A stretch of DNA of 64,000 nucleotides from Escherichia coli (GTDB lineage Bacteria > Pseudomonadota > Gammaproteobacteria > Enterobacterales > Enterobacteriaceae), in the NCBI RefSeq assembly GCF_024298765.1, contig NZ_CP101210.1. The stretch is one strand, 5' to 3'. Of the stretch, positions 2,078-47,370 are shown piece by piece (the first letter of the stretch is position 1; the number at the start of each line of letters is the position of its first letter). The translations under genes were made by a program, and so were the position numbers. The notes below the pieces were generated by a model. That model searched no databases, was not told the DNA's origin, and saw only the letters and a program-made list of their open reading frames with translations.

Positions 2078-2125
2078 TGTCCTGTAGGCCTGATAAGACG
2101 CGTAAAGCGTCGCATCAGGCGTTCG
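2078..2125. repeat. REP (palindromic unit) downstream of asmA
   Basis: GTAGGCCTGATAAGACGCG...CGTCGCATCAGGCG motif typical of enterobacterial REP. Confidence 0.7.
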
Positions 2126-2336
2126 CGGCGGCACCATTATATTCTGAATATGTAAGATCGAAGGCTGTTCCGTTCACTTGATGTTCCTCACTACTATGGA
2201 ACGCTCAAGCCGGTGAACGTGCCAGGGTGGCTCAATCGCCACCACCCTGGCAACCCGGGCTCCCGGCGGTAAATCGCCGCTGGCGCGGTTCCCTCATCTT
2301 ATTCCTTTCGGCTATCGGGTAAAATGACCGATACCA

Positions 2337-3920: not shown

Positions 3921-4361
3921 AGTAAGTACAAAACCTATTCGTTGTATGACAAATGTCACAATTCGATCATGGATAAATCGGGGCAAAAATGCAATGTTGC
4001 AGCACTATTTATCTCATATTATTTGAGGGTAATAACCTCACATTATCCCTGAATTAAAAGTGGTAATAATAAAACATTATTTAAGAAATATCGCATGTGG
4101 AGGCGCAATATTAAATATTGTCAACCTAAAGAAACTCCTAAAAACCATATTGAATGACACTTAATATAATTCTTAAAAATAGCCAATTGCCGAATTGTTA
4201 CCTTGCCTGCTATTCCGTTAGCTGTAACACTTCCTCCTGCATTATTGGAGAGCCAATATTCAATTACCATAATGTCACCTTATATTCGGAAGTTAATTTC
4301 CGCAATAACCCTTTCTCATCAACGATTGTATGCAGAGAGGGTTTGAAAAATTAAGCTAAAT

Positions 4362-4400
4362 CAGTGTATTGGTAGCTAAAAAGCCAGGGGCGGTAGCGTG
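4362..4400 (+). promoter_or_regulatory. JUMPstart element with ops (GGCGGTAGCGTG, 4389-4400) in colanic acid operon leader
   Basis: cagtgtattggtagctaaaaagccaggggcggtagcgtg about 180 bp upstream of wza; ops is the RfaH recruitment site. Confidence 0.85.
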
Positions 4401-4578
4401 TCTGGATGCCTGAAAGACCAGTCTGAATTATTCTGTCAATAGCCTGCGGATGAAATCAATTTTTTTAGGACTGATGCCAGTTAAATTTGTATTCAATTAA
4501 CTGCAAGGTAAATGTGCATGGCGACATTGCTATTAATAGTGCACAGGATAATTACTCTGCCAAAGTGATAAATAAACA

Positions 4579-5718
4579 ATGATGAAATCCAAAATGAAAT
4601 TGATGCCATTATTGGTGTCAGTAACCTTGATAAGCGGTTGCACAGTACTTCCGGGCAGCAATATGTCGACGATGGGCAAAGACGTCATCAAACAGCAGGA
4701 CGCTGATTTCGATCTCGACAAAATGGTGAATGTTTATCCGCTGACCCCGCGCCTGATTGACCAATTACGCCCACGCCCGAATGTAGCGCGCCCCAATATG
4801 ACGCTGGAAAGTGAGATCGCGAATTACCAGTATCGCGTCGGGCCGGGCGACGTTCTGAATGTCACCGTCTGGGATCACCCGGAACTCACCACGCCAGCCG
4901 GTCAGTACCGCAGCTCCAGCGACACCGGCAACTGGGTACAGCCTGACGGCACTATGTTTTACCCGTATATCGGCAAGGTCCACGTAGTCGGGAAAACGCT
5001 CGCTGAAATCCGCAGTGATATTACCGGGCGCTTAGCGACGTACATCGCTGACCCGCAGGTGGATGTTAATATCGCCGCCTTCCGCTCGCAAAAGGCCTAT
5101 ATCTCAGGTCAGGTGAATAAATCCGGTCAACAGGCGATCACCAACGTACCACTGACCATTCTCGACGCCATCAACGCCGCAGGTGGCCTGACCGACACCG
5201 CTGACTGGCGCAACGTGGTGCTAACACACAATGGTCGTGAAGAACGCATTTCTTTGCAGGCGCTGATGCAAAACGGCGACCTCAATCAGAACCGACTGCT
5301 TTACCCCGGCGATATTCTCTACGTGCCGCGTAATGATGATCTGAAAGTGTTTGTGATGGGTGAAGTGAAGAAACAGAGCACCCTGAAAATGGACTTTAGC
5401 GGCATGACCCTGACTGAAGCCCTGGGCAATGCCGAAGGTATCGACATGACCACCTCCAACGCCAGCGGCATCTTTGTCATTCGTCCGCTGAAAGGCGAGG
5501 GCGGGCGTAACGGCAAGATTGCCAATATCTACCAGCTGGATATGTCCGATGCCACGTCGCTGGTGATGGCGACAGAATTCCGCCTGCAACCTTATGACGT
5601 GGTGTATGTCACCACCGCCCCGGTTTCCCGCTGGAACCGTCTGATCAATCAGTTGCTGCCAACTATTAGCGGTGTCCGTTACATGACGGATACAGCCAGC
5701 GACATTCATAACTGGTAA
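4579..5718 (+). CDS. wza: Outer membrane polysaccharide export lipoprotein
   Basis: 379 aa, lipoprotein signal (LISGC); first gene of colanic acid cluster. Confidence 0.95.
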
Positions 5719-5723
5719 TCGTC

Positions 5724-6167
5724 ATGTTTAACAACATCTTAGTTGTCTGTGTCGGCAATATTTGCCGTTCCCCGACGGCGGAACGCTTACTGCAACGTTA
5801 TCACCCGGAGCTGAAAGTGGAGTCCGCTGGACTCGGCGCGCTGGTCGGTAAGGGCGCTGATCCTACCGCTATCAGCGTCGCCGCAGAACATCAACTGTCT
5901 CTGGAAGGTCACTGTGCCCGTCAAATCAGCCGCCGTCTGTGTCGCAACTACGACCTGATTTTGACCATGGAAAAGCGCCATATCGAACGCTTATGCAAGA
6001 TGGCACCCGAGATGCGCGGCAAAGTGATGCTGTTTGGTCACTGGGATAACGAATGTGAAATCCCCGATCCGTATCGCAAAAGCCGGGAAACGTTTGCAGC
6101 GGTGTACACATTACTTGAACGGTCTGCCCGCCAGTGGGCGCAGGCATTGAACGCAGAGCAGGTATAA
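5724..6167 (+). CDS. wzb: Low-molecular-weight protein-tyrosine phosphatase
   Basis: 147 aa, N-terminal CVGNICRSP P-loop motif. Confidence 0.95.
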   Translation: MFNNILVVCVGNICRSPTAERLLQRYHPELKVESAGLGALVGKGADPTAISVAAEHQLSLEGHCARQISRRLCRNYDLILTMEKRHIERLCKMAPEMRGKVMLFGHWDNECEIPDPYRKSRETFAAVYTLLERSARQWAQALNAEQV

Positions 6168-6169
6168 GA

Positions 6170-8332
6170 ATGACAGAAAAAGTAAAACAACATGCCGCTC
6201 CGGTAACGGGCAGTGATGAAATCGATATTGGTCGCCTGGTCGGCACCGTCATTGAAGCGCGCTGGTGGGTGATTGGCATCACCGCTGTATTTGCCCTCTG
6301 TGCCGTGGTTTACACCTTCTTCGCCACGCCGATTTATAGTGCCGACGCACTGGTACAAATCGAGCAAAACAGCGGCAATTCGTTAGTGCAGGATATCGGA
6401 TCGGCGTTAGCCAACAAACCGCCTGCATCGGACGCCGAGATCCAGTTGATTCGTTCGCGTCTGGTGCTTGGTAAAACGGTGGACGATCTCGACCTCGATA
6501 TTGCAGTGAGCAAAAACACGTTCCCGATTTTCGGTGCGGGCTGGGATCGCCTGATGGGACGTCAGAACGAGACGGTGAAAGTGACCACCTTTAACCGCCC
6601 GAAAGAGATGGCGGATCAGGTGTTTACGCTTAATGTGCTGGACGATAAAAACTACACCCTGAGCAGCGACGGCGGCTTTAGCGCCCGTGGGCAAGCGGGC
6701 CAGATGCTGAAAAAAGAAGGCGTCACGCTGATGGTTGAAGCCATTCACGCCCGCCCGGGCAGTGAGTTTACCGTCACCAAATACTCCACGTTGGGGATGA
6801 TCAACCAACTGCAAAACAGCCTGACGGTAACGGAGAACGGCAAAGACGCAGGCGTACTGAGCCTGACTTATACCGGTGAAGATCGCGAACAGATCCGCGA
6901 CATTCTTAACAGCATCGCCCGTAACTATCAGGAACAAAATATTGAGCGCAAATCGGCGGAAGCGTCGAAAAGCCTCGCTTTCCTCGCGCAACAGTTACCG
7001 GAAGTACGTAGCCGCCTCGATGTTGCCGAAAACAAACTGAATGCCTTCCGTCAGGATAAAGATTCTGTTGATCTGCCGCTGGAAGCGAAAGCGGTGCTCG
7101 ATTCGATGGTGAACATCGACGCGCAGTTGAACGAACTGACCTTTAAAGAGGCGGAAATCTCCAAGCTGTACACCAAAGTTCACCCGGCGTACCGCACGCT
7201 GCTGGAGAAACGTCAGGCGCTGGAAGAAGAGAAAGCCAAACTTAACGGTCGCGTAACGGCGATGCCGAAAACCCAGCAGGAGATTGTGCGCCTGACCCGC
7301 GATGTCGAGTCTGGTCAGCAGGTCTATATGCAACTGCTGAATAAAGAGCAGGAGCTGAAAATCACCGAAGCCAGCACCGTCGGCGATGTGCGCATTGTTG
7401 ACCCGGCAATCACCCAGCCTGGCGTGCTGAAACCGAAGAAAGGGCTGATTATCCTCGGCGCGATTATCCTTGGCCTGATGCTTTCTATCGTGGGTGTGCT
7501 GCTGCGCTCGTTGTTTAATCGCGGCATCGAAAGCCCGCAGGTGCTGGAAGAACACGGTATCAGCGTCTATGCCAGCATCCCGCTGTCGGAATGGCAGAAA
7601 GCGCGCGATAGCGTCAAAACCATCAAAGGGATTAAACGCTATAAACAGAGCCAGCTACTGGCGATGGGGAATCCAACCGATCTGGCGATTGAAGCCATCC
7701 GCAGTCTGCGTACCAGTTTGCACTTCGCGATGATGCAGGCACAGAACAATGTGTTGATGATGACCGGGGTTAGCCCGTCAATCGGTAAAACCTTTGTCTG
7801 CGCCAACCTGGCGGCGGTGATCAGCCAGACCAATAAACGGGTGTTGTTGATCGACTGCGATATGCGCAAAGGCTACACCCACGAGCTGCTGGGCACTAAT
7901 AACGTTAATGGCCTGTCGGAAATTCTGATTGGTCAGGGCGATATTACTACCGCTGCTAAACCGACCTCTATTGCCAAATTTGACCTGATCCCGCGCGGTC
8001 AGGTGCCGCCAAATCCTTCTGAACTGTTGATGAGCGAACGCTTTGCCGAACTGGTGAACTGGGCGAGTAAAAACTATGACCTGGTGTTGATTGATACGCC
8101 GCCGATTCTGGCAGTGACCGATGCGGCAATTGTTGGTCGTCATGTCGGAACCACATTAATGGTGGCGCGTTATGCGGTCAACACATTGAAAGAAGTGGAA
8201 ACCAGTCTGAGCCGCTTTGAGCAAAACGGTATTCCGGTGAAAGGGGTGATTCTGAACTCCATCTTCCGCCGCGCCAGCGCGTATCAGGATTATGGCTATT
8301 ACGAATACGAATATAAGTCGGATGCGAAATAA
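6170..8332 (+). CDS. wzc: Tyrosine autokinase / polysaccharide co-polymerase
   Basis: Start taken at MTEKVKQ (720 aa), not the upstream track start 6134; Walker A GVSPSIGKT; Tyr-rich C-terminus YQDYGYYEYEYKSD. Confidence 0.95.
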   Translation: MTEKVKQHAAPVTGSDEIDIGRLVGTVIEARWWVIGITAVFALCAVVYTFFATPIYSADALVQIEQNSGNSLVQDIGSALANKPPASDAEIQLIRSRLVLGKTVDDLDLDIAVSKNTFPIFGAGWDRLMGRQNETVKVTTFNRPKEMADQVFTLNVLDDKNYTLSSDGGFSARGQAGQMLKKEGVTLMVEAIHARPGSEFTVTKYSTLGMINQLQNSLTVTENGKDAGVLSLTYTGEDREQIRDILNSIARNYQEQNIERKSAEASKSLAFLAQQLPEVRSRLDVAENKLNAFRQDKDSVDLPLEAKAVLDSMVNIDAQLNELTFKEAEISKLYTKVHPAYRTLLEKRQALEEEKAKLNGRVTAMPKTQQEIVRLTRDVESGQQVYMQLLNKEQELKITEASTVGDVRIVDPAITQPGVLKPKKGLIILGAIILGLMLSIVGVLLRSLFNRGIESPQVLEEHGISVYASIPLSEWQKARDSVKTIKGIKRYKQSQLLAMGNPTDLAIEAIRSLRTSLHFAMMQAQNNVLMMTGVSPSIGKTFVCANLAAVISQTNKRVLLIDCDMRKGYTHELLGTNNVNGLSEILIGQGDITTAAKPTSIAKFDLIPRGQVPPNPSELLMSERFAELVNWASKNYDLVLIDTPPILAVTDAAIVGRHVGTTLMVARYAVNTLKEVETSLSRFEQNGIPVKGVILNSIFRRASAYQDYGYYEYEYKSDAK

Positions 8333-8356
8333 CGACGCCTGCATTCGCACCGCCCC

Positions 8357-8391
8357 GTAGGCCGGATAAGGCGCTCACGCCGCATCCGGCA
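8357..8391. repeat. REP element downstream of wzc
   Basis: GTAGGCCGGATAAGGCGC...GCCGCATCCGGCA palindromic unit. Confidence 0.7.
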
Positions 8392-8424
8392 AGCAAACCA
8401 GCTCATAAGCCGGGAGAACAACCT

Positions 8425-9264
8425 ATGAAAGACAATCCGCTGATCTCAATCTATATGCCGACCTGGAACCGCCAACAACTGGCGATTCGGGCGATAAAAT
8501 CGGTCTTGCGCCAGGACTACAGCAACTGGGAGATGATCATCGTGGATGATTGCTCCACCTCCTGGGAACAGCTTCAGCAGTACGTCACCGCCCTCAACGA
8601 TCCGCGTATTACCTACATTCACAACGACATTAACAGCGGGGCGTGCGCGGTACGTAACCAGGCGATTATGCTGGCGCAAGGGGAATACATCACCGGGATC
8701 GATGATGATGATGAATGGACGCCCAACCGCCTGAGCGTCTTCCTCGCCCATAAACAGCAACTGGTCACCCACGCCTTTTTGTACGCTAACGACTACGTTT
8801 GTCAGGGCGAAGTCTATTCCCAACCGGCAAGTTTGCCGCTGTATCCCAAATCGCCGTATTCACGCCGCCTGTTCTACAAACGCAATATCATTGGCAATCA
8901 GGTCTTTACCTGGGCGTGGCGTTTCAAAGAGTGTTTGTTCGATACCGAACTGAAAGCGGCACAGGATTACGACATCTTCCTGCGGATGGTGGTGGAGTAT
9001 GGCGAACCGTGGAAAGTGGAAGAAGCGACGCAGATCCTGCATATCAATCACGGTGAAATGCAGATCACCTCGTCACCGAAAAAATTCTCCGGATACTTCC
9101 ACTTTTACCGCAAGCACAAAGACAAATTCGACCGGGCCAGCAAAAAATATCAGCTGTTTACCCTCTACCAGATCCGCAATAAACGTATGACCTGGCGCAC
9201 TTTGCTGACGCTGCTGTCGGTGCGTAACGGCAAACGTCTGGCTGATGGTATTCGGGGGCGCTAA
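8425..9264 (+). CDS. wcaA: Colanic acid glycosyltransferase (GT2)
   Basis: 279 aa; GT2 N-terminal motifs (ISIYMPTWN, IIVDDCS). Confidence 0.9.
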   Translation: MKDNPLISIYMPTWNRQQLAIRAIKSVLRQDYSNWEMIIVDDCSTSWEQLQQYVTALNDPRITYIHNDINSGACAVRNQAIMLAQGEYITGIDDDDEWTPNRLSVFLAHKQQLVTHAFLYANDYVCQGEVYSQPASLPLYPKSPYSRRLFYKRNIIGNQVFTWAWRFKECLFDTELKAAQDYDIFLRMVVEYGEPWKVEEATQILHINHGEMQITSSPKKFSGYFHFYRKHKDKFDRASKKYQLFTLYQIRNKRMTWRTLLTLLSVRNGKRLADGIRGR

Positions 9265-9266
9265 AG

Positions 9267-9755
9267 ATGCTGGAAGATCTGCGCGCCAACAGCTGGAGTT
9301 TACGCCCGTGCTGCATGGTTCTTGCCTATCGCGTTGCTCATTTTTGTTCGGTGTGGCGCAAAAAGAACGTCCTCAACAATCTGTGGGCGGCCCCGCTGCT
9401 GGTGCTGTATCGCATTATCACCGAATGCTTTTTCGGTTATGAAATCCAGGCCGCCGCGACCATTGGCCGCCGCTTTACTATCCATCACGGTTACGCCGTA
9501 GTGATCAATAAAAACGTGGTAGCGGGGGATGATTTCACCATTCGCCACGGCGTCACTATCGGCAATCGTGGTGCCGATAACATGGCATGTCCACACATTG
9601 GCAACGGCGTCGAACTCGGAGCCAACGTCATTATTCTTGGTGATATCACGCTTGGTAACAACGTCACCGTGGGCGCGGGCAGCGTGGTGCTCGACTCTGT
9701 CCCGGACAACGCGCTGGTGGTGGGAGAAAAAGCGCGAGTGAAGGTAATTAAATGA
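9267..9755 (+). CDS. wcaB: Colanic acid acetyltransferase (hexapeptide-repeat)
   Basis: 162 aa; left-handed beta-helix hexapeptide repeats. Confidence 0.9.
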   Translation: MLEDLRANSWSLRPCCMVLAYRVAHFCSVWRKKNVLNNLWAAPLLVLYRIITECFFGYEIQAAATIGRRFTIHHGYAVVINKNVVAGDDFTIRHGVTIGNRGADNMACPHIGNGVELGANVIILGDITLGNNVTVGAGSVVLDSVPDNALVVGEKARVKVIK

Positions 9756-27646: not shown

Positions 27647-28642
27647 ATGAACGATAACGTTTTGCTCATAGGAGCTTCCGGATTCGTAGGAACCCGACTA
27701 CTTGAAACGGCAATTGCTGACTTTAATATCAAGAACCTGGACAAACAGCAGAGCCACTTTTATCCAGAAATCACACAGATTGGCGATGTTCGCGATCAAC
27801 AGGCACTCGACCAGGCATTAGTTGGTTTTGACACTGTTGTACTACTGGCAGCGGAACACCGCGATGACGTCAGCCCTACTTCTCTCTATTATGATGTCAA
27901 CGTTCAGGGTACCCGCAATGTGCTGGCGGCCATGGAAAAAAATGGCGTTAAAAATATCATCTTTACCAGTTCCGTTGCTGTTTATGGTTTGAACAAACAT
28001 AACCCTGACGAAAACCATCCACACGACCCTTTCAACCACTACGGCAAAAGTAAGTGGCAGGCAGAGGAAGTGCTGCGTGAATGGTATAACAAAGCACCAA
28101 CAGAACGTTCATTAACCATCATCCGTCCTACCGTTATCTTCGGTGAACGCAACCGCGGTAACGTCTATAACTTGCTGAAACAGATCGCTGGCGGCAAGTT
28201 TATGATGGTGGGCGCAGGGACTAACTATAAGTCCATGGCTTATGTTGGAAACATTGTTGAGTTTATCAAGTACAAACTGAAGAATGTTGCCGCAGGTTAT
28301 GAGGTTTATAACTACGTTGATAAGCCAGACCTGAACATGAACCAGTTGGTTGCTGAAGTTGAACAAAGTCTGAACAAAAAGATCCCTTCTATGCACTTGC
28401 CTTACCCACTAGGAATGCTGGGTGGATATTGCTTTGATATCCTGAGCAAAATTACGGGCAAAAAATACGCTGTCAGCTCTGTGCGCGTGAAAAAGTTCTG
28501 CGCAACTACACAGTTTGACGCAACGAAAGTGCATTCGTCAGGTTTTGTTGCACCGTATACGCTGTCGCAAGGTCTGGATCGAACTCTGCAGTATGAATTC
28601 GTCCATGCCAAAAAAGACGACATAACGTTTGTTTCTGAGTAA
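27647..28642 (+). CDS. gne: NAD-dependent UDP-N-acetylhexosamine 4-epimerase (Gne-like SDR)
   Basis: 331 aa; Rossmann GASGFVGTRL; sits between wcaM and galF where some E. coli lineages carry gne. Confidence 0.8.
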   Translation: MNDNVLLIGASGFVGTRLLETAIADFNIKNLDKQQSHFYPEITQIGDVRDQQALDQALVGFDTVVLLAAEHRDDVSPTSLYYDVNVQGTRNVLAAMEKNGVKNIIFTSSVAVYGLNKHNPDENHPHDPFNHYGKSKWQAEEVLREWYNKAPTERSLTIIRPTVIFGERNRGNVYNLLKQIAGGKFMMVGAGTNYKSMAYVGNIVEFIKYKLKNVAAGYEVYNYVDKPDLNMNQLVAEVEQSLNKKIPSMHLPYPLGMLGGYCFDILSKITGKKYAVSSVRVKKFCATTQFDATKVHSSGFVAPYTLSQGLDRTLQYEFVHAKKDDITFVSE

Positions 28643-28884: not shown

Positions 28885-29778
28885 ATGACGAATTTAAAAG
28901 CAGTTATACCGGTAGCAGGTCTTGGGATGCATATGTTGCCTGCCACTAAGGCGATTCCCAAAGAGATGCTACCGATCGTCGACAAGCCAATGATTCAGTA
29001 CATTGTTGACGAGATTGTGGCTGCAGGGATCAAAGAAATCCTCCTGGTAACTCATGCGTCCAAGAACGCGGTCGAAAACCACTTCGACACCTCTTATGAA
29101 TTAGAATCTCTCCTTGAACAGCGCGTGAAGCGTCAGCTGCTGGCGGAAGTGCAGTCCATCTGTCCGCCTGGCGTGACCATTATGAACGTGCGTCAGGGTG
29201 AACCTTTAGGTTTGGGCCACTCCATTTTATGTGCACGACCCGCCATTGGTGACAACCCATTTGTCGTGGTGCTGCCAGACGTTGTGATCGATGACGCCAG
29301 CGCCGACCCGCTGCGCTACAACCTTGCTGCCATGATTGCGCGCTTCAACGAAACGGGCCGCAGCCAGGTGCTGGCAAAACGTATGCCGGGTGACCTCTCT
29401 GAATACTCCGTCATTCAGACCAAAGAACCGCTGGACCGTGAAGGCAAAGTCAGCCGCATTGTTGAATTTATCGAAAAACCGGATCAGCCGCAGACGCTGG
29501 ACTCAGACATCATGGCCGTAGGTCGTTATGTGCTTTCTGCTGATATTTGGCCGGAACTGGAACGTACTCAGCCTGGTGCATGGGGGCGTATTCAGCTTAC
29601 TGATGCTATTGCCGAACTGGCGAAAAAACAGTCCGTTGATGCCATGCTGATGACTGGAGACAGCTACGACTGCGGTAAAAAAATGGGCTATATGCAGGCG
29701 TTTGTGAAGTATGGGCTGCGCAACCTGAAAGAAGGGGCGAAGTTCCGCAAAGGTATTGAGAAGGTGTTAAGTGAATAA
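28885..29778 (+). CDS. galF: UTP-glucose-1-phosphate uridylyltransferase paralogue (GalU-like regulatory subunit)
   Basis: 297 aa; nucleotidyltransferase motif [25 protein letters not shown]. Confidence 0.95.
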
Positions 29779-30011: not shown

Positions 30012-30050
30012 CAGTGAGTTGGTAACTGTTAAGCCAAGGGCGGTAGCGTG
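30012..30050 (+). promoter_or_regulatory. JUMPstart element with ops (GGCGGTAGCGTG, 30039-30050) in O-antigen operon leader
   Basis: cagtgagttggtaactgttaagccaagggcggtagcgtg; same 39-bp architecture as the wza leader copy. Confidence 0.85.
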
Positions 30051-30085
30051 TGTTTTGATCCTACCCACGTAATATGGACACAGGC

Positions 30086-30841
30086 CTAAGCGAGGTTCTG
30101 GTTTTCAAATTGTTCCGGACTGAGGCCGCCACACCAACTGTGCCGCCGCCACCGATTGTAATCACATTCGATATAATTAAACACCGTTGCCCGCATTATT
30201 TCCCGGCTGATAAAGTGTTCTCCATGGATACATTCCACTTTCAGCGAATGAAAGAAGCTTTCCACGCAGGCATTATCGTAGCAGCAACCTTTTGCGCTCA
30301 TACTTCCACGCAGATTATGCCGCTTCAGTTGCGCCGTCATGCGTGGCGACATTGACCAGCCAATAACGGCACGTGACCACAGGTCAATGACCACTGCCAG
30401 ATACAGCCAGCCTTCATCTGTACGTAAGTACGTGATGTCTCCTGCCCACTTCTGGTTCGGGCCACTGGCGTAAAAATCCTGCTCCAACAGATTTTCTGAC
30501 ACAGGCAGGCCGTGTGCGCGGTAGCTGACCGGGCTGAACTTCCGGGAGGCCTTTGCCCTCAGTCCCTGACGGCGCAGGCTTGCCGCCACGGTTTTTACGT
30601 TAAAGGGGTAACCCTGAGCACGCAGTTCATCCGTCAGGCGTGGGGCACCGTAACGCTGTTTTGACCGGGTAAAAGCCGCGAGGACAACGCTGTCGCAGTG
30701 TTGGCGGAACTGCTGACGCGTGCTTATCCTTGTCCGCCGCTGACACCACGTATACCAGCCGCTGCGGGCCACCCGGAGCACGCGGCACATTGCTTTGATG
30801 CTGAACTCAGCCTGATGTTTTTCAATAAAGACATACTTCAT
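30086..30841 (-). pseudogene. insF: IS3 OrfB transposase catalytic domain, apparently truncated by in-frame internal deletion (251 aa versus recalled 288 aa)
   Basis: [19 protein letters not shown]...; junction PRMTAQL|KRHNLRG at about 30326/30327; recalled intact OrfB has about 37 extra residues here including HTDRGGQY. Confidence 0.7.
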
Positions 30842-31146
30842 TTCAGGCGCTTCGCGAAGTATGTCGCGGCCTTTTGGAGGATAGCCAGCTCTTCATCCCG
30901 TTCTGCCAGCTGGCGTTTGAGACGTGCAATCTCGGTAGACATCTCCAGTTCACGTTCAGAAGACGTCTGCTGATTTTGCTGTTTACTGCGCCAGTTGTAG
31001 AGCTGTGATTCATACAGGCTGAGTTCACGGGCTGCGGCAGTAACACCGATGCGTTCAGCAAGCTTCAGGGCTTCACTGCGAAATTCAGGCGAATGCTGTT
31101 TACGGGGTTTTTTACTGGTTGATACTGTTTTTGTCATGTGAGTCAC
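30838..31146 (-). CDS. insE: IS3 OrfA (transposase N-terminal HTH protein)
   Basis: 102-aa ORF ...[50 protein letters not shown]...; leucine-zipper-like C-terminus. Confidence 0.9.
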
Positions 31147-31237
31147 CTCTGACTGAGAGTTTACTCACTTAGCCGCGTGTCCACTATTGCTGGGTAAGAT
31201 CATTTTTCTCTCAATCCTCATGATAAAGGAGGTTTAT

Positions 31238-32257
31238 ATGGTGATTTTCGTAACAGGCGGTGCAGGATATATTGGATCCCATACCATACTTGAGTTACTT
31301 AATAATGGTCATGATGCCGTTTCGATAGATAATTTTGCCAATTCCTCTATAGAATCATTAAAAAGAGTAGAGCAAATAACTAATAAGAAAATTATTTCTT
31401 ATCAAGGTGATATCCGTGATAAAAATCTACTTGATGAGATTTTTTCAAGACATCATATCGATGCTGTAATTCATTTTGCATCGTTAAAATCTGTAGGTGA
31501 GTCAAAGTTAAAGCCCTTAGAGTATTATTCTAATAATGTTGGTGGAACTTTAGTATTACTTGAATGCATGAAGAGATATAACATTAATAAAATGATATTT
31601 AGCTCTTCTGCTACTGTTTATGGGAATAACAGTATCCCTCCCCATACGGAAGATAGACGAATTGGTGAAACTACAAACCCATATGGGACATCGAAGTTTA
31701 TAATAGAAATGATTTTGAGTGATTATTGTGATAGCGATAATAATAAATCAGTAATTGCACTACGTTATTTTAATCCAATCGGAGCACATAAGTCCGGGAT
31801 GATTGGTGAAAATCCTAACGGGATTCCTAATAATCTGGTTCCTTATATATCTAAAGTTGCACAAAATCAACTTCCTGTATTAAATATTTATGGCAACGAT
31901 TATCCAACTAAAGATGGTACAGGAGTAAGAGACTATATACATGTCTGTGATTTGGCTAAAGGGCATGTTAAAGCATTAGAATATATGTTTTTAAATGATG
32001 TCAATTATGAGGCTTTTAATTTAGGTACTGGTCAAGGTTATTCTGTTTTAGAGATTGTAAAAATGTTTGAGATAGTCACTAAAAAGAGTATACCTTTTGC
32101 TATTTGTAATAGACGTGAGGGGGATGTTGCTGAGTCATGGGCGTCTGCTGATTTGGCACATGAAAAGCTTTCCTGGAAAGCGGAAAAAAAATTGAAAGAA
32201 ATGATCGAAGATGTATGGCGTTGGCAAACAAAAAATCCAAATGGATATAAAAAATAA
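31238..32257 (+). CDS. UDP-hexose 4-epimerase (GalE/Gne family), first O-antigen gene
   Basis: Start at ATG 31238 with AGGAGG RBS (track ORF begins 31187, overlapping the IS end); 339 aa; TGGAGYIGSHT Rossmann, NPYGTSK, YxxxK; AT-rich. Confidence 0.85.
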   Translation: MVIFVTGGAGYIGSHTILELLNNGHDAVSIDNFANSSIESLKRVEQITNKKIISYQGDIRDKNLLDEIFSRHHIDAVIHFASLKSVGESKLKPLEYYSNNVGGTLVLLECMKRYNINKMIFSSSATVYGNNSIPPHTEDRRIGETTNPYGTSKFIIEMILSDYCDSDNNKSVIALRYFNPIGAHKSGMIGENPNGIPNNLVPYISKVAQNQLPVLNIYGNDYPTKDGTGVRDYIHVCDLAKGHVKALEYMFLNDVNYEAFNLGTGQGYSVLEIVKMFEIVTKKSIPFAICNRREGDVAESWASADLAHEKLSWKAEKKLKEMIEDVWRWQTKNPNGYKK

Positions 32258-32275: not shown

Positions 32276-33292
32276 ATGAAAAATGTTGGTTTTATTGTTA
32301 CAAAATCAGAAATTGGTGGTGCACAAACATGGGTAAATGAAATATCTAACCTTATTAAAGAGGAATGTAATATATTTCTTATTACATCTGAAGAAGGATG
32401 GCTCACACATAAAGATGTCTTTGCTGGAGTTTTTGTCATACCAGGTATTAAAAAATATTTTGACTTCCTTACATTGTTTAAATTGAGAAAAATTTTAAAA
32501 GAAAATAATATTTCAACATTAATAGCAAGTTCTGCTAATGCCGGAGTTTATGCTAGGTTAGTTCGATTACTAGTCGACTTTAAATGTATTTATGTTTCGC
32601 ATGGATGGTCTTGTTTATATAATGGTGGTCGACTAAAATCAATTTTTTGTATTGTGGAGAAATACCTTTCTTTATTAACTGATGTTATATGGTGTGTTTC
32701 CAAAAGTGATGAAAAAAAAGCAATTGAGAAAATTGGTATAAAAGAAACAAAGATAATCACAGTATCGAATTCAGTGCCTCAGATGCCAAGATGTAATAAT
32801 AAACCACTCCAGTATAAAGTTCTGTTTGTTGGTAGGTTAACACACCCTAAGCGCCCCGAATTGTTAGCGAATGTAATATCGAAAAAGCCCCAGTATAGCC
32901 TCCATGTCGTAGGAGGGGGGGAAAGGTTAGAATCATTGAAGAAACAATTCAGTGAATGTGAAAATATTCATTTTATGGGTGAGGTCAATAATTTTTATAA
33001 CTATCATGAGTATGATTTATTTTCACTGATATCCGATAGTGAAGGTTTGCCTATGTCAGGCCTTGAGGCTCACACAGCTGCAATACCACTCCTTTTAAGT
33101 GATGTGGGCGGATGTTTTGAATTAATTGAGGGTAATGGGGTACTTGTGGAAAATACTGAAGACGACATTGGATATAAATTGGATAAAATATTCGATGACT
33201 ATGAAAATTATCGGGAACAGGCAATTCGTGCCTCCGGAAAATTTGTTATCGAGAACTATGCTTCAGCATATAAAAGCATTATTTTAGGTTGA
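32276..33292 (+). CDS. Glycosyltransferase, GT4 family (retaining, GT-B)
   Basis: 338 aa; EX7E-type motif SEGLPMSGLEAHTAAIPLL; AT-rich. Confidence 0.75.
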   Translation: MKNVGFIVTKSEIGGAQTWVNEISNLIKEECNIFLITSEEGWLTHKDVFAGVFVIPGIKKYFDFLTLFKLRKILKENNISTLIASSANAGVYARLVRLLVDFKCIYVSHGWSCLYNGGRLKSIFCIVEKYLSLLTDVIWCVSKSDEKKAIEKIGIKETKIITVSNSVPQMPRCNNKPLQYKVLFVGRLTHPKRPELLANVISKKPQYSLHVVGGGERLESLKKQFSECENIHFMGEVNNFYNYHEYDLFSLISDSEGLPMSGLEAHTAAIPLLLSDVGGCFELIEGNGVLVENTEDDIGYKLDKIFDDYENYREQAIRASGKFVIENYASAYKSIILG

Positions 33293-33318
33293 GTATTTTT
33301 TAGAACAGGAAATGTAAA

Positions 33319-34440
33319 ATGGCTAAAGTCGCTCTCATTACTGGCATAACCGGACAAGACGGTTCTTACCTGGCAGAGTTTCTGCTGGAAAAAGGTTACG
33401 AGGTGCATGGTATTAAGCGTCGTGCATCGTCATTCAACACCGAGCGCGTGGATCACATTTATCAGGATCCGCACACCTGCAACCCGAAATTCCATCTGCA
33501 TTATGGCGACCTGAGTGATACCTCCAACCTGACGCGCATTTTGTGTGAAGTGCAGCCGGATGAAGTGTACAACCTTGGCGCAATGAGTCACGTTGCGGTC
33601 TCTTTTGAGTCACCGGAATATACCGCAGACGTTGATGCGATGGGTACGCTGCGCCTGCTCGAGGCGATCCGCTTCCTCGGTCTGGAAAAGAAAACCCGTT
33701 TCTATCAGGCTTCCACTTCTGAACTGTACGGTCTGGTGCAGGAGATTCCGCAGAAAGAGACCACGCCGTTCTACCCACGCTCTCCGTATGCAGTCGCCAA
33801 ACTGTACGCCTACTGGATCACCGTTAACTACCGCGAATCCTACGGCATGTACGCCTGTAACGGTATTCTCTTTAACCATGAATCCCCGCGCCGCGGCGAA
33901 ACCTTCGTTACCCGCAAAATCACCCGCGCAATCGCCAACATCGCACAGGGGCTGGAGTCGTGCCTGTACCTCGGCAATATGGATTCCCTGCGTGACTGGG
34001 GCCACGCCAAAGACTACGTAAAAATGCAGTGGATGATGCTGCAACAGGAACAGCCGGAAGATTTCGTCATCGCTACCGGCGTTCAGTATTCCGTGCGTCA
34101 GTTCGTGGAAATGGCGGCAGAGCGAGTCGGAATCAAACTGCGTTTTGAAGGCGCAGGTGTAGATGAGAAAGGGATAGTGGTTTCTGTTAATGGTGAGGAT
34201 GCTCCAGCAGTTAAACCTGGAGATGTAATCGTTAAGGTTGACCCGCGTTACTTCCGTCCGGCTGAAGTTGAAACACTGCTCGGCGACCCGACCAAAGCGC
34301 ACGAAAAACTGGGCTGGAAACCGGAAATCACCCTCAGAGAGATGGTGTCTGAAATGGTGGCTAATGACCTCGAAGCGGCGAAAAAACACTCTCTGCTGAA
34401 ATCTCACGGCTACGACGTGGCGATCGCGCTGGAGTCATAA
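33319..34440 (+). CDS. gmd: GDP-mannose 4,6-dehydratase (O-antigen copy)
   Basis: 373 aa; near-identical to colanic acid gmd apart from a divergent patch at about 34110-34255. Confidence 0.95.
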
Positions 34441-34442
34441 GC

Positions 34443-35408
34443 ATGAGTAAACAACGCATTTTTATCGCTGGCCATCGTGGGATGGTCGGTTCTGCCATCA
34501 GGCGGCAGCTCAAACAGCGCGGTGATGTGGAACTGGTATTACGCACCCGCGACGAGCTGAACCTGCTGGACAGCCGCGCGGTGCATGATTTCTTTGCCAG
34601 CGAACGCATTGACCAGGTCTATCTGGCGGCGGCGAAAGTGGGCGGCATTGTTGCCAACAACACCTATCCGGCGGATTTCATCTACCAGAACATGATGATT
34701 GAGAGCAACATCATTCACGCCGCGCATCAGAACGACGTGAACAAACTGCTGTTTCTCGGATCGTCCTGTATCTACCCGAAACTGGCAAAACAGCCGATGG
34801 CAGAAAGCGAGTTATTGCAGGGCACGCTGGAGCCGACCAACGAGCCTTACGCCATTGCCAAAATCGCCGGGATCAAACTGTGCGAATCTTACAACCGCCA
34901 GTATGGACGCGATTACCGCTCAGTCATGCCGACCAACCTGTACGGGCCGCACGACAACTTCCACCCGAGTAACTCGCACGTGATCCCTGCATTGCTGCGT
35001 CGCTTCCACGAGGCGACGGCACAGAATGCGCCGGACGTGGTGGTGTGGGGCAGCGGTACACCGATGCGCGAATTTCTGCACGTTGATGATATGGCAGCGG
35101 CGAGCATTCATGTGATGGAGCTGGCGCACGAAGTCTGGCAGGAGAACACCCGGCCGATGCTGTCGCACATTAACGTCGGCACGGGCGTTGACTGCACTAT
35201 CCGTGAGCTGGCGCAAACCATCGCCAAAGTGGTGGGTTACAAAGGTCGGGTGGTTTTTGATGCCAGCAAACCGGATGGTACGCCGCGCAAACTGCTGGAT
35301 GTGACGCGCCTGCATCAGCTTGGCTGGTATCACGAAATCTCACTGGAAGCGGGGCTTGCCAGCACTTACCTGTGGTTCCTTGAGAATCAAGACCGCTTTC
35401 GGGGGTAA
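34443..35408 (+). CDS. fcl: GDP-L-fucose synthase (O-antigen copy)
   Basis: 321 aa; nucleotide-identical to colanic acid fcl across the whole gene by line-by-line comparison. Confidence 0.95.
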
Positions 35409-35911
35409 TGATGTTTTTACGTCAGGAAGACTTTGCCACGGTAGTGCGCTCCACCCCGCTTGTCTCCCTCGACTTTATTGTTGAGAACAGTCGCGGCGAG
35501 TTTCTGCTTGGCAAAAGAACCAACCGCCCGGCGCAGGGTTACTGGTTTGTGCCGGGAGGGCGCGTGCAGAAAGACGAAACGCTGGAAGCCGCATTTGAGC
35601 GGCTGACGCTTGCGGAACTGGGGTTGCGTCTGCCGATAACAGCAGGCCAGTTTTACGGTGTCTGGCAGCACTTTTATGACGATAACTTCTCCGGCTCGGA
35701 TTTCACCACTCACTATGTGGTGCTCGGTTTTCGCATCAGAGTAGCGGAAGAAAAGCTGTTACTGCCGGATGAGCAGCATGACGATTACCGCTGGCTGACG
35801 CCGGACGCGTTGCTCGCCAGTGACAATGTTCACGCTAACAGCCGAGCTTATTTTAATCATGATCCAAGAGCTGTTATTGGTTTAGATAAAAAGGATGTCA
35901 AAAATGTCTGA
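35408..35911 (+). CDS. gmm: GDP-mannose mannosyl hydrolase (O-antigen copy, divergent C-terminus)
   Basis: 167 aa; first ~145 aa near-identical to colanic gmm, then diverges after ...NSRAYF; 3' end overlaps manC. Confidence 0.85.
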
Positions 35912-37355: not shown

Positions 37356-38735
37356 ATGAAAAAATTAACCTGCTTTAAAGCCTATGATATTCGCGGGAAA
37401 TTAGGTGAAGAACTGAATGAAGATATCGCCTGGCGCATTGGTCGCGCCTATGGCGAATTTCTCAAACCGAAAACCATTGTGTTAGGCGGTGATGTCCGCC
37501 TCACCAGCGAAACCTTAAAACTGGCGCTGGCAAAAGGTTTGCAGGATGCGGGCGTCGATGTGCTGGATATTGGTATGTCCGGCACCGAAGAGATCTATTT
37601 CGCCACGTTCCATCTCGGCGTGGATGGCGGCATTGAAGTTACCGCCAGTCATAATCCGATGGATTACAACGGCATGAAACTGGTGCGCGAAGGGGCTCGC
37701 CCGATCAGCGGCGATACCGGACTGCGCGATGTCCAGCGTCTGGCAGAAGCCAACGACTTTCCTCCCGTTGATGAAACCAAACGCGGTCGCTATCAGCAAA
37801 TCAACCTGCGTGACGCTTACGTTGATCACCTGTTCGGTTATATCAGTGTCAAAAACCTTACGCCGCTCAAGCTGGTGATTAACTCCGGGAACGGCGCGGC
37901 GGGTCCGGTGGTGGACGCCATTGAAGCCCGCTTTAAAGCCCTCGGCGCACCGGTGGAATTAATCAAAGTACACAACACGCCGGACGGCAATTTCCCCAAC
38001 GGTATTCCTAACCCGTTGCTGCCGGAATGCCGCGACGACACCCGTCATGCGGTCATCAAACACGGCGCGGATATGGGCATTGCCTTTGATGGCGATTTTG
38101 ACCGCTGTTTCCTGTTTGACGAAAAAGGGCAGTTTATCGAGGGCTACTACATTGTCGGCTTGCTGGCACAAGCGTTCCTCGAAAAAAATCCCGGCGCGAA
38201 GATCATCCACGATCCACGTCTCTCCTGGAACACCGTTGATGTGGTGACTGCCGCAGGCGGCACCCCGGTAATGTCGAAAACCGGACACGCCTTTATTAAA
38301 GAACGGATGCGCAAGGAAGACGCCATCTACGGTGGCGAAATGAGCGCCCACCATTACTTCCGTGATTTTGCTTACTGCGACAGCGGCATGATCCCGTGGC
38401 TGCTGGTCGCCGAACTGGTGTGTCTGAAAGGAAAAACGCTGGGCGAACTGGTGCGCGACCGGATGGCAGCATTTCCGGCAAGCGGTGAGATCAACAGCAA
38501 ACTGGCGGACCCCGTTGAGGCGATTAACCGCGTGGAACAGCATTTTAGCCGTGAGGCGCTGGCGGTGGATCGCACCGATGGCATCAGTATGACCTTTGCC
38601 GACTGGCGCTTTAACCTGCGCTCCTCCAACACCGAACCGGTGGTGCGCCTGAATGTGGAATCGCGCGGTAATATAGCATTAATGAATGAACAGGTTGAAT
38701 TTATTACAAAATTTTTAAACGGTGATGGTTTATGA
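37356..38735 (+). CDS. manB: Phosphomannomutase (O-antigen copy)
   Basis: 459 aa; near-identical to cpsG in the stretches compared except the last ~20 codons. Confidence 0.95.
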
Positions 38736-42432: not shown

Positions 42433-43316
42433 AAATAGCACTAATAAGTACAGAAAAAGCTAATCTTCCTGAAATTGAAGCCTATAAGGAGTATTTTTCG
42501 GAGCCATTTGATGTCTCTGTTGTTAATAAAAATGATGATTTAAGTTGTTATGATGTTTTATGGTACTTTATGGGGTTTAAAGGTAATAAAATAAACTCTA
42601 AACAGTTCTTGATTCATGAGTTTTCCTCAATTTCAGTACCACCATTTCCAAAAATAAAAAACGTTATCAAGAAATTTATTTTGCCTAAACCTAATTTGAG
42701 GGTTTTTTTAAATAAATCAGTGCAACAACAATTCGATTTTAATGATAGAGTTCCTTTTTGTTACCGAGATATGGGCGTCAATTATAAACCAGTAGTTGAA
42801 AGAAATAATAAAAAATATGATATATTATATGTGGGGGCAATTACTGGTAGAAAACTAGATGATGCATTAAATTTGATTTTGTCATATAAATTAGATTGTA
42901 AAATCGCAATTCTTGGTAAAGTGCCAGAAAAGTTCAAAGAAAAATATAAAAATACTGATGTTATATTTCTTGGGCAAGTTCCTTATAATCGGGTAGCCAC
43001 CATTATTGCAGAATCTAACTTGTGTTTAAATTGGATTCCGAATATTTATCCATATAACATGCAGACATCAACAAAATTCTTAGAGTATCTGGCACAAAAT
43101 AAACAAATAATATCGAATAGCTACCCTTGGGTTGACTCTTATTGTCAACAGCATAATATTGACTATATTAATGTCAATGATTCCAATTCTATTCGACAAG
43201 CATTGAACTCAGTCATAATCCAAAAATCAACACATATCCCCCCAAGTTGGCGAGAGGTTATTATGAATAGCGGGATAGAGAATCACATTAAATCATATTT
43301 TGAGGTAACAAAATGA
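42417..43316 (+). CDS. Putative glycosyltransferase (family not recognisable from motifs)
   Basis: 299 aa, AT-rich, 16-bp overlap with upstream GT2 gene; C-terminal region loosely resembles a GT-B C-terminal domain. Confidence 0.5.
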   Translation: MVNKIKIALISTEKANLPEIEAYKEYFSEPFDVSVVNKNDDLSCYDVLWYFMGFKGNKINSKQFLIHEFSSISVPPFPKIKNVIKKFILPKPNLRVFLNKSVQQQFDFNDRVPFCYRDMGVNYKPVVERNNKKYDILYVGAITGRKLDDALNLILSYKLDCKIAILGKVPEKFKEKYKNTDVIFLGQVPYNRVATIIAESNLCLNWIPNIYPYNMQTSTKFLEYLAQNKQIISNSYPWVDSYCQQHNIDYINVNDSNSIRQALNSVIIQKSTHIPPSWREVIMNSGIENHIKSYFEVTK

Positions 43317-44356
43317 TTTCTTACGGAGTGCTATTTCTCTTCTCTTATATCAATGCTGTACTTCAGAAGAGAGTAACCGTAACGTTACTATTTTTTATAA
43401 TGATAATTGTTTCTTTCTTTAAATATAATATTGGATTTGATTGGGGGAATTATCATGAAATTTACCTTCAGCAAGGAGATGGCTTTTTTTTTAATGAACC
43501 CCTATTTTCTCTCTTAATTATTCTTTCCAATAAGGTTGCATTAGAATATAAATATTTTATATCAATGTGCTCATTAATTACACTGATTGTTTATTATTCT
43601 GGTATGCGGTGTTTTGCAAGAGATATAAAAGAGTTAGCTTTAGCATTAACTTATTTTGTTGTCTCTTATTGCTACTTTGAACACTTTAATATTATTCGAC
43701 AAGCTTTAGCAATCGCTTTATTCTTTTATAGTTGGAAATATATTATTGAGACTAACTTTATAATGTATAGCCTCTTTATTTTTTTTGCATCTATGATTCA
43801 TGCGGCGGCGGTTGTATTGCTCCCATTTTACTTTTTCCTTAGAATTGATAATTTTAAACCTGTATATTATGGTATAGTGGTCTTATTTATTATTATTGTT
43901 GTTAGATTCGATATTAACAGCATCCTTTTAAGTTCACTTAATTTATTTAAAAATTTCGATTTTGTAGCCAGGTATTTAGCAAATTCAACAGATTTGGCTG
44001 ACTTTGCATCAAAAAAATCTGATCTTGGATTAAGTAAGATATACCCAGCAATTATATTTGTTTTCTGTTGTTTTTGGGGAGGGATTAGGTTAGAGTCTCG
44101 AAGAGACTATGTTTTTTTTAATGCTGGCTTTATTGCAATAACTTTACTGCTCTTAAGCTATCAGGTTGATATTTTGTTTAGATTTTTCTCTTTTTTTGAG
44201 ACTTCATTTGTCTTGTTGTACTGCATTATTTTTTCTGGTTTTAATAAAAAAAGTAAAATTATACTGCATATGGTTAATTTAATTGTATATACGGTAATGA
44301 CATTTAACATGTTATCAGTAATGGGCTTGATTCCTTATGAATCATACATTTTCTAA
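43313..44356 (+). CDS. wzy: O-antigen polymerase (Wzy-like polytopic membrane protein)
   Basis: 347 aa, highly hydrophobic and Phe/Ile/Leu-rich, very AT-rich; 4-bp overlap with upstream gene. Confidence 0.6.
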   Translation: MISYGVLFLFSYINAVLQKRVTVTLLFFIMIIVSFFKYNIGFDWGNYHEIYLQQGDGFFFNEPLFSLLIILSNKVALEYKYFISMCSLITLIVYYSGMRCFARDIKELALALTYFVVSYCYFEHFNIIRQALAIALFFYSWKYIIETNFIMYSLFIFFASMIHAAAVVLLPFYFFLRIDNFKPVYYGIVVLFIIIVVRFDINSILLSSLNLFKNFDFVARYLANSTDLADFASKKSDLGLSKIYPAIIFVFCCFWGGIRLESRRDYVFFNAGFIAITLLLLSYQVDILFRFFSFFETSFVLLYCIIFSGFNKKSKIILHMVNLIVYTVMTFNMLSVMGLIPYESYIF

Positions 44357-44837
44357 TAAGCTTCCCTCAGTTGTTTGTTGTATAGTAATATTTTAATATC
44401 ATTGCAGTGTGTAATTATTGTCAATAAGCTAATTTCTGTTATTTGCATGATTAATTCAGTTTGCAATGCTTGATGTAAAAAGATAAAGTGCACCCGTTTA
44501 CACAATGTTTATTTTGGCATGTCAAGTATAAGTTCTAAATAATACGTTTGTAATGTTTAGCATGTAAACATAATAGTTAAATAATATTAAACATGCAACA
44601 TGCCATTTGTTATTCTAATAAAACATATGTGTTGTGTGAATTATTTAATGTGGAAAGTGGTTGCGTATTATAAATTGTTCATATTGACGTTTAAGTCTTT
44701 TATAACTCCATGCTTGCATGTTAAAAACATTTCGCTATATATTCGCTATATATTATGGTAGGTGGTTTTTATCTAGGCAGATTTGTCTATTTAACTCTAA
44801 ATCTAAATCGCTTAAGAAAGTATGAGTAGGAGTATTT

Positions 44838-45857
44838 ATGGCTATTCTCGTTACAGGTGGTGCTGGTTATATTGCATCACATACTATACTGAGTTTGATA
44901 GAGCAGGGTAATGAAGTAATTATTATTGATAATTTATCAAATTCATATTATGATTCGTTATTGAAAATAAAAGAGATTACTGGATGTGATTGTCTTTTTT
45001 ATAAAGGAGATATCCTTGACAAAAAACTCTTGCTAAAAATATTTGATGAAAATAATATCACTGCTGTGATGCATTTTGCTGGTGCAAAGTCTGTAAGTGA
45101 ATCTGTTATCAGACCTTTGCAATACTATCGAAATAATGTCTCTGGCACTTTTTCTTTAGTTGAGGCAATGGAGGAGTCTGGTGTAGAAAATTTAATATTT
45201 AGCTCTTCAGCAACTGTCTATGGTGAGCCAAAGATTATTCCTGTGAATGAAAGTTGTGCTATAGGTGGTACTACAAATCCGTATGGAACGTCCAAGTTAT
45301 TTGTAGAGAACTTTTTGCGGGATTATTCTAAGGCATCCCCTAATTTTAAAACTATAGTATTAAGATATTTTAACCCTATCGGTGCTCACTCATCTGGAAA
45401 AATAGGTGAAGATCCTAACGGAATTCCGAATAACTTGATGCCCTTTATATGCCAGGTTGCTATCGGTAAACAAAAAACGCTCAAGATCTACGGAAATGAT
45501 TATCCTACTAAAGATGGTACTGGGATTCGCGATTATATTCATGTTATGGATCTTGCTGAAGGTCATGTTGCTGCATTAAATAATATTAATCAAGGAGCTA
45601 ATTATAGAGTTTACAACCTTGGAACAGGAATTGGATACTCTGTGTTGGAATTATTAGAAGCATTTCAGAAAGTTACAACTCGGAGAGTTCCCTATGTTTT
45701 TACTAAAAGGCGTTCAGGTGATATCGCTGAATGTTGGTCTGATCCTACCAAAGCGTATGAAGAATTAGGATGGAAAGCAAGGCGAGGGTTAGAAGATATG
45801 ATTCGTGATGCATGGAATTGGCAGCAAAAAAATCCAAATGGATTTAAGAAAGTTTAA
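44838..45857 (+). CDS. UDP-hexose 4-epimerase (GalE/Gne family), last O-antigen gene
   Basis: 339 aa; TGGAGYIASHT, NPYGTSK, IYGNDYPTKDGTGIRDYIHV; paralogous to the 31238 gene. Confidence 0.85.
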   Translation: MAILVTGGAGYIASHTILSLIEQGNEVIIIDNLSNSYYDSLLKIKEITGCDCLFYKGDILDKKLLLKIFDENNITAVMHFAGAKSVSESVIRPLQYYRNNVSGTFSLVEAMEESGVENLIFSSSATVYGEPKIIPVNESCAIGGTTNPYGTSKLFVENFLRDYSKASPNFKTIVLRYFNPIGAHSSGKIGEDPNGIPNNLMPFICQVAIGKQKTLKIYGNDYPTKDGTGIRDYIHVMDLAEGHVAALNNINQGANYRVYNLGTGIGYSVLELLEAFQKVTTRRVPYVFTKRRSGDIAECWSDPTKAYEELGWKARRGLEDMIRDAWNWQQKNPNGFKKV

Positions 45858-45963: not shown

Positions 45964-47370
45964 ATGTCAAAGCAACAGATCGGCGTAGTCGGTATGGCAG
46001 TGATGGGGCGCAACCTTGCGCTCAACATCGAAAGCCGTGGTTATACCGTCTCTATTTTCAACCGTTCCCGTGAAAAGACGGAAGAAGTGATTGCCGAAAA
46101 TCCAGGCAAGAAACTGGTTCCTTACTATACGGTGAAAGAGTTTGTTGAATCTCTGGAAACGCCTCGTCGCATCCTGTTAATGGTGAAAGCAGGTGCAGGC
46201 ACGGATGCTGCTATTGATTCCCTCAAGCCATACCTCGATAAAGGTGACATCATTATTGATGGTGGTAATACCTTCTTCCAGGATACCATTCGTCGTAACC
46301 GTGAGCTTTCTGCCGAAGGTTTTAACTTCATTGGTACCGGTGTCTCCGGTGGTGAAGAAGGCGCGCTGAAAGGTCCTTCCATCATGCCTGGTGGGCAGAA
46401 AGAAGCCTATGAACTGGTTGCACCGATCCTGACCAAAATCGCCGCCGTTGCTGAAGATGGCGAACCGTGCGTTACCTATATTGCTGCCGATGGCGCGGGT
46501 CACTATGTGAAGATGGTTCACAACGGTATTGAATACGGTGATATGCAACTGATTGCTGAAGCCTATTCTCTCCTGAAAGGCGGCCTGAATCTTTCTAACG
46601 AAGAACTGGCACAGACCTTTACCGAGTGGAATAACGGTGAACTGAGCAGCTACCTGATCGACATCACCAAAGACATCTTCACTAAAAAAGATGAAGACGG
46701 TAACTACCTGGTTGATGTGATCCTGGATGAAGCGGCTAACAAAGGTACCGGTAAATGGACCAGCCAGAGCGCGCTGGATCTCGGAGAACCGCTGTCGCTG
46801 ATTACCGAGTCTGTGTTTGCACGTTATATCTCTTCTCTGAAAGATCAGCGTGTTGCAGCGTCTAAAGTTCTCTCTGGTCCGCAAGCGCAGCCTGCTGGCG
46901 ACAAGGCTGAGTTCATCGAAAAAGTTCGTCGTGCTCTGTATCTGGGCAAAATCGTTTCTTACGCCCAAGGCTTCTCTCAGCTGCGTGCTGCGTCTGAAGA
47001 GTACAACTGGGATCTGAACTACGGCGAAATCGCGAAGATTTTCCGTGCTGGCTGCATCATCCGTGCGCAGTTCCTGCAGAAAATCACCGATGCTTATGCC
47101 GAAAATCCGCAGATCGCTAACCTGCTGCTGGCTCCGTACTTCAAGCAAATTGCCGATGACTACCAGCAGGCGCTGCGTGATGTCGTTGCTTATGCAGTAC
47201 AGAACGGTATCCCGGTTCCGACCTTCGCGGCTGCGGTTGCCTATTATGACAGCTACCGCGCCGCAGTTCTGCCTGCAAACCTGATCCAGGCACAGCGTGA
47301 CTATTTCGGTGCGCATACTTATAAGCGCATTGATAAAGAAGGTGTGTTCCATACTGAATGGCTGGATTAA
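45964..47370 (+). CDS. gnd: 6-phosphogluconate dehydrogenase, decarboxylating
   Basis: 468 aa; N-terminal [19 protein letters not shown]-binding motif. Confidence 0.97.

Follow-up and report, generated by a model that had tools for sequence, protein, structure and literature searches.

The 481-bp gap that separates the O-antigen polymerase gene wzy from the last epimerase gene in the O-antigen cluster of Escherichia coli O128 appears to be a junction spacer that is non-functional or very weakly constrained, a reading to which we would give roughly two chances in three on the basis of sequence comparison. The window (the whole stretch of 64,000 nucleotides that was analysed) carries this cluster, and the gap sits exactly on a module boundary at the 3' end of wzy. 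The history proposed here would begin with a core ending in wzy, as is still found beside gnd in Citrobacter werkmanii, which would have gained, in front of gnd, a gene for a GalE/Gne-type epimerase. This event would have left a non-coding stretch of a few hundred base pairs at the joint between wzy and the epimerase gene, and the spacer may since have drifted at about the neutral rate, collecting indels by slippage: a difference of about 176 bp between short direct repeats, 6 bp (CTAAAT) in the O128 lineage and 11 bp in one strain. The epimerase gene would be transcribed mainly by read-through from the ops/RfaH operon promoter and would use its own AGGAG site, which is conserved, for translation.

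The gap within the O128 cluster

By megablast, the segment 43300-45900 matched 22 complete genomes (identity about 99% or higher), in which the two genes are annotated as 'O128 family O-antigen polymerase' and then 'GalE'. The open reading frames of the window agree with the annotated neighbourhood of strain 90-9281, and the gene assignments are consistent with Pfam and NCBIfam. The order is gnu, galF, a first GalE/Gne-like gene, a glycosyltransferase (GT) gene, gmd, fcl, gmm, manC, manB, an acetyltransferase gene, wzx, a GT11 fucosyltransferase gene, a GT2 gene, a further GT gene, wzy, the gap, a second GalE/Gne-like gene, gnd, ugd and wzz (Table 1). A clade-A GalE/Gne-type epimerase is therefore encoded at each end of the O128 core, in addition to gnu upstream of galF, and the two epimerases of the window are 55% identical to each other.

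The base composition of the cluster is a mosaic, with 52-59% G+C in gmd-fcl-gmm and manB (33200-35900 and 37400-38700) and 26-38% in manC and the serotype-specific genes. Exchange of the GDP-fucose pathway genes with their colanic-acid paralogues is suggested by this pattern; in strain 90-9281, manB bears the annotation 'colanic acid ... CpsG'.

Table 1. Coordinates in the window of the gap, of the features within it and of the genes and elements around it.
Feature	Position	Strand	Evidence or remark
gnu	27647-28642		
galF	28885-29778		upstream of the first GalE/Gne-like gene
ops element GGCGGTAG, the cluster's own copy	30039-30046		upstream of the first O-antigen gene
IS3-family element	30056-31202	-	orfA 30838-31146, orfB 30086-30841
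First GalE/Gne-like gene	31238-32257		
wzy, O128 O-antigen polymerase, EpsG family	43313-44356	+	Pfam EpsG E=8.8e-40; RefSeq annotation
Non-coding spacer, 481 bp	44357-44837		between wzy and second epimerase gene
Middle segment, ~176 bp	44477-44652		absent from E. albertii; flanked by TGATGT (44471-44476) and TAATGT (44646-44651)
Promoter-like match TTGGCA-18-AATAAT	44514-44543	+	one of the two best plus-strand matches (10/12)
Promoter-like match TTAGCA-17-AATAAT	44557-44585	+	the other of the two best plus-strand matches
Remains of 72-codon ORF	44600-44829	+	split into 53-codon (44600-44761) and 24-codon (44755-44829) ORFs; judged spurious
TTGACG hexamer	44684-44689	+	CAGCCG in E. albertii; TTGATG in O128 strain BUCT2930
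TTCGCTATATA x2, 11-bp tandem duplication	44731-44752	+	private to the window strain
CTAAAT x2 (+C), 6-bp duplication	44797-44809	+	in all aligned O128 sequences; single-copy in E. albertii
AGGAG Shine-Dalgarno	44828-44832	+	5 nt before epimerase ATG; conserved in E. albertii
Second GalE/Gne-type (clade A) 4-epimerase	44838-45857	+	last gene before gnd; NCBIfam galE 458 bits, PRK10675 463 bits
gnd	45964-47370		

The gap is real, the wzy reading frame ending at 44356 and that of the epimerase starting at 44838, and it is an outlier in the cluster, where the remaining junctions between the first epimerase gene and wzy, 12 in number, range from -17 to +26 bp. The tight packing described by the sequence-only reading was borne out, as the nine genes from gmm to wzy overlap or abut with junctions of -17 to +3 bp. 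So was the lack of any ORF of at least 60 aa in the gap of the window, the longest being 53 aa on the plus strand and 50 aa on the minus strand; the longest stop-free stretch, of 56 codons, equals that of shuffled sequences (53 +/- 13). The gap had also been singled out as very AT-rich, and its G+C content is indeed 0.278, but this is not distinctive, because that of wzy is 0.283. The epimerase gene, at 0.35, has a higher G+C content than wzy and the gap before it (0.28). Only short, imperfect inverted repeats were found in the gap, none of them of note.

In all 25 other O128 sequences compared (22 complete genomes and 3 metagenome contigs) the gap measures 470 bp, and the sole length difference in an alignment of eight O128 sequences is the extra copy of TTCGCTATATA carried by the window. 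The nucleotide diversity (pi) of the gap within O128 is 0.0082 (12 segregating sites), which lies within the range of the flanking third codon positions (0.0099 in wzy, 0.0047 in the GT gene and 0.0023 in the epimerase gene), so that these 12 sites give no sign of purifying selection. Among the same strains gnd is much more polymorphic (pi 0.032, with 0.090 at third positions) than the O-antigen genes adjoining it (0.001-0.005). A recombination hot spot is known beside the O-antigen locus, and the polymorphism of gnd fits with it. In another O128 strain, CFIAFB20190167 (L003, 568-2500), wzy is annotated as frameshifted and the preceding glycosyltransferase gene is split into two hypothetical proteins; the strain may therefore be O-rough.

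Both short repeats that had been noticed in the gap are present, about 2-3 nt (the 11-bp repeat) and 3 nt (the 6-bp repeat, CTAAATCTAAATC) to the left of where they had first been placed. The 11-bp run (TRF 44731-44754, period 11, 2.2 copies, 100% match) is beyond chance, with P ~0.0007 in 3,000 Markov shuffles. As TTCGCTATATA is single-copy in the 22 complete O128 genomes, the 3 metagenome O128 contigs and E. albertii, its second copy points to a very recent slippage event private to the window strain; it could instead be a sequencing or assembly error. The CTAAATCTAAATC repeat is at the level expected by chance from composition alone (P ~0.36 in shuffles), though comparison with E. albertii identifies it as a real 6-bp indel. 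With one repeat private to a strain and the other specific to the O128 lineage, neither appears to bear any sign of function, and both look like accidents of replication slippage.

Relatives of the gap and of its neighbours

A search for relatives of wzy led to a diverged homologue of the gap, in two contigs (L090 and L091) that carry wzy (86% aa identity), a 294-bp gap, the epimerase gene (94.7% aa identity) and gnd. The Gnd, Fcl-like and epimerase proteins of these contigs match Escherichia albertii entries exactly, and the block from wzy to gnd is 87-89% identical to the window. The E. albertii gap can be aligned at both ends, with 73.7% identity over 289 nt, and differs from that of O128 by indels of 2, 5, 6 and about 176 bp. 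Third codon positions of the flanking O-antigen genes are more alike between the two clusters than the gap is, with 79% identity in wzy, 86% in the GT gene and 86.5% in the epimerase gene; those of gnd are even less alike than the gap (61%). The only well-kept block of the gap alignment beside the epimerase gene is the AGGAG ribosome-binding site. The near-identical hexamers that flank the segment missing from E. albertii form the pattern expected of a deletion between short direct repeats; this difference may instead be an insertion in the O128 lineage. On the other hand, about 290 bp of the gap have been kept in two species over a neutral-site divergence of roughly 25%, which could hint at a weak function such as a promoter or a spacing requirement of the epimerase gene.

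According to Ooka et al. (2019, PMC6927306), the EAOg8 cluster of E. albertii resembles portions of the O128 and O55 clusters of E. coli. The likeness of the wzy-gap-epimerase-gnd block of L090 and L091 to the O128 block of the window is akin to this relation, and L090 would then correspond to EAOg8. Directly after gnd, in place of ugd, L090 carries a gene of the Fcl family (4713-5636, 307 aa), the product of which falls under the NCBIfam cut-off for GDP-L-fucose synthase. This gene may belong to a colitose pathway, in line with the O55-like colitose side chain attributed to EAOg8 in that paper (PMC6927306).

The comparisons cover few lineages, with eight strains of O128 and a single type of E. 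albertii. An exact-pattern scan of metagenomes for further-diverged copies of the gap returned ordinary O128 E. coli only, so that the comparative power is limited to one diverged lineage.

More distant relatives place the gap on a boundary between gene modules. In C. werkmanii, the order gnu-galF-GT-gmd-fcl-gmm-manC-manB-acetyltransferase-wzx-GT11-GT2-GT-wzy is that of the O128 core, and wzy (56% aa identity) is followed by 151 bp and then by gnd; neither end of the cluster carries a GalE-like gene. Pectobacterium punjabense has the same core, with a wzy product of 49% aa identity, and wzy is the last gene of a core common to O128, C. werkmanii and Pectobacterium. Between its wzy and an epimerase gene whose product is 59.5% identical to that of O128, P. 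punjabense has 1,245 bp of 40% G+C (L095, 7054-8298), which hold a decayed element of the IS630 family with about 69% identity to IS630 over some 570 bp. The nearest epimerases outside O128 are 73-75% identical in amino acid sequence, one of them being from Citrobacter sedlakii according to exact protein matches, and they are encoded by the last gene before gnd wherever the flank is known. In C. sedlakii and another relative the epimerase gene lies 26-30 bp after an upstream gene, and it is only from about 3 nt ahead of the ATG that the DNA of these nearest relatives is homologous to the window.

Since C. werkmanii, Pectobacterium and the epimerase relatives all differ at this place, the 3' end of wzy is a recurrent module boundary. 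The sequence-only reading had offered a recombination junction as one of three explanations for the gap, and it is the one favoured by these comparisons, in which related clusters change directly after wzy and the homology of the epimerase genes sets in just before the start codon. The gap is a non-coding interval where related clusters switch gene content, its divergence is near-neutral and its length is not conserved, which together characterise a spacer between modules. The comparison has no outgroup and is thus not polarised: the O128 lineage may have gained the epimerase gene, or Citrobacter may have lost it.

Probable transcription across the gap and other possible roles

No terminator-like site was found in a scan of the gap, which is poorer in C (11.4%) than in G (16.4%), so that its RNA would be a poor substrate for Rho. 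The ops element recruits RfaH, which suppresses polarity in such operons. For these reasons the gap is probably crossed by read-through transcription. The ops 8-mer GGCGGTAG occurs four times in the window and not at all in the gap.

The leader of the cluster has itself been altered in the strain that was analysed. An IS3-family element, with ends TGATCC...AAGATCA and a target duplication of 3 bp (TTT), lies 9 nt downstream of the ops copy of the cluster and 35 nt upstream of the ATG of the first O-antigen gene, and therefore comes between the JUMPstart/ops leader and the operon as a whole. This junction was found in only 2 of 5,426 complete genomes (LHM10-1 and CP52E) and is absent from strain 90-9281. 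A canonical IS3 is about 1,258 bp long, with an orfB product of 288 aa; the element of the window, being shorter (about 1,147 bp, with an orfB product of 251 aa), may carry an internal deletion.

Among the alternatives to a spacer with little or no function, the one that survives best is an internal sigma-70 promoter that would make expression of the epimerase gene partly independent of the ops/RfaH-driven operon promoter, a possibility that we consider rather unlikely and that would be compatible with an origin of the gap as a junction. The gap is AT-rich DNA with promoter-like matches on the plus strand, the two best of which are listed in Table 1, and a weaker one (TTGCAT-18-TATATT) overlaps the 11-mer; moreover, a gap is kept in E. 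coli O128 and E. albertii alike, and non-coding DNA ahead of the epimerase gene after wzy recurs in Pectobacterium. Such matches (16-18 nt spacing) are, however, not enriched, with 21 in the gap against 15.3 +/- 4.2 in shuffles, and the two best plus-strand sites both fall inside the segment of about 176 bp that is missing from E. albertii, the gap of which has no plus-strand promoter-like site at the same threshold. A relaxed scan gave only weak co-located matches of 7-8/12 and no strong, positionally conserved -35/-10 pair. The TTGACG hexamer to which attention had been drawn does exist, but the scan found no properly spaced -10 element for it and it is conserved neither in E. albertii nor in strain BUCT2930. 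Furthermore, the promoter-proximal 183 nt of the gap, with 71.6% identity in the E. albertii alignment, are conserved no better than the distal part (75%) or than synonymous sites. The internal promoter put forward by the sequence-only reading is thus neither demonstrated nor refuted, and a weak promoter is conceivable in DNA of 28% G+C. A more specific version, in which a weak internal promoter serves the terminal epimerase gene and slippage indels act as a crude tuner of its expression by changing the spacing of the hexamers, appears improbable; the 11-bp duplication of the window does overlap the TTGCAT-N18-TATATT match. If this version were true, the weak promoter would matter most in the IS3 sublineage, where transcription driven by the operon promoter may be weakened.

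Doubtful to a greater degree is the proposal that the gap is what remains of a decayed gene, for instance a glycosyltransferase gene that preceded the epimerase gene in a donor cluster, or of an insertion sequence. The close upstream neighbour of the nearest epimerase relatives, the decayed IS630 in the equivalent interval of Pectobacterium and the presence of a 72-codon ORF in the 470-bp form of the gap would all agree with such a remnant. Against it, a six-frame Pfam scan of the gap gave no match at E<=10, nor did a word-indexed comparison of the six-frame concatenate with 5.8 billion proteins, and the only match of an exhaustive HMMER search against 1.84 billion representatives (P0129) is the 72-aa ORF of the locus itself. 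The genes upstream of the epimerase relatives (C. sedlakii L088 and L089) bear no similarity to the gap at the DNA level or in translated searches (tblastn). Homology to the gap was lacking from the sequences that flank the epimerase genes of other species at 80 loci; even the nearest species-representative epimerases have no more than 62% identity. A repeat element or IS was rejected, as blastn against the 5,426 complete E. coli genomes matched only the 22 O128 loci, and so was a plasmid or phage origin, with no match in plasmid and phage DNA and no similarity to IS. The idea that the gap is the scar of a lost gene therefore found no support in these searches, which would miss a gene decayed beyond recognition.

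In most O128 strains the 72-codon ORF of the 470-bp form runs from window position 44600 to the ribosome-binding site of the epimerase gene; in the window it is broken, because the 11-bp duplication shifts its frame. It was rejected as a small gene. Its length is within chance (P ~0.10), it has no homologue other than itself in the HMMER search of 1.84 billion representatives, and the seven O128 strains with the 470-bp form differ in it by 4 nonsynonymous and 2 synonymous substitutions. It also carries a nonsense allele in CFIAFB20190167, a frameshift in the window and a lost start codon in E. albertii. Annotators should not call a gene for this ORF in other O128 genomes.

A cis-regulatory RNA, a small RNA or a small protein is very improbable. 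In its favour, a leader could have the length of the gap, and in most O128 strains the ribosome-binding site of the epimerase gene is where the 72-codon ORF stops. It is largely refuted by the lack of conservation, with divergence at or above the synonymous level and frame-breaking indels; there is also no match in Rfam at E<=1, the folding energy equals that of shuffles (z = 0.33) and all ORF tests are negative.

Known systems and significance of the gap

The gap is real but ordinary, and its kind is already known. Liu et al. (FEMS Microbiol Rev 2020, PMC7685785) list non-coding regions among the 'anomalies' of E. coli/Shigella O-antigen clusters, with 14 cases in 178 serogroups, and read anomalies as traces of relatively recent genetic events. 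By analogy with the cases in that review, the O128 gap may be assigned to this recognised class, with which it shares the occurrence of a non-coding stretch inside a tightly packed galF-gnd cluster and, in O128, a position on a boundary where clusters differ. It departs from that description in not being very recent, as it is common to the E. albertii cluster at about 26% divergence. We found no discussion of the wzy-epimerase interval of O128 in the literature that was consulted.

Two other known systems offer partial parallels. IS remnants at the junctions of O-antigen modules occupy the same class of position, bordering a conserved block of genes, as exemplified by the IS630 remnant of P. 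punjabense, which lies exactly between the homologous wzy and epimerase genes, and by the IS3 element of the window; the O128 gap differs from them in having no similarity to IS or plasmids, no notable terminal inverted repeats and no other copy in 5,426 genomes. In the JUMPstart/ops leader, too, an O-antigen transcription unit has a long untranslated stretch that is AT-rich; the O128 gap, by contrast, lacks GGCGGTAG, is internal to the operon and is not conserved.

The overall significance of the gap is small. The 11-bp duplication and the IS3 insertion can be used as strain or sublineage markers. Read as a spacer with little or no function, the only sizeable interruption of the O-antigen operon of O128 would be a neutral seam of modular assembly, and it provides an example of how the 3' boundary of wzy varies between related clusters, with wzy directly followed by gnd in Citrobacter, by a spacer and an epimerase gene in O128 and E. 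albertii, and by an IS630 remnant and an epimerase gene in Pectobacterium.
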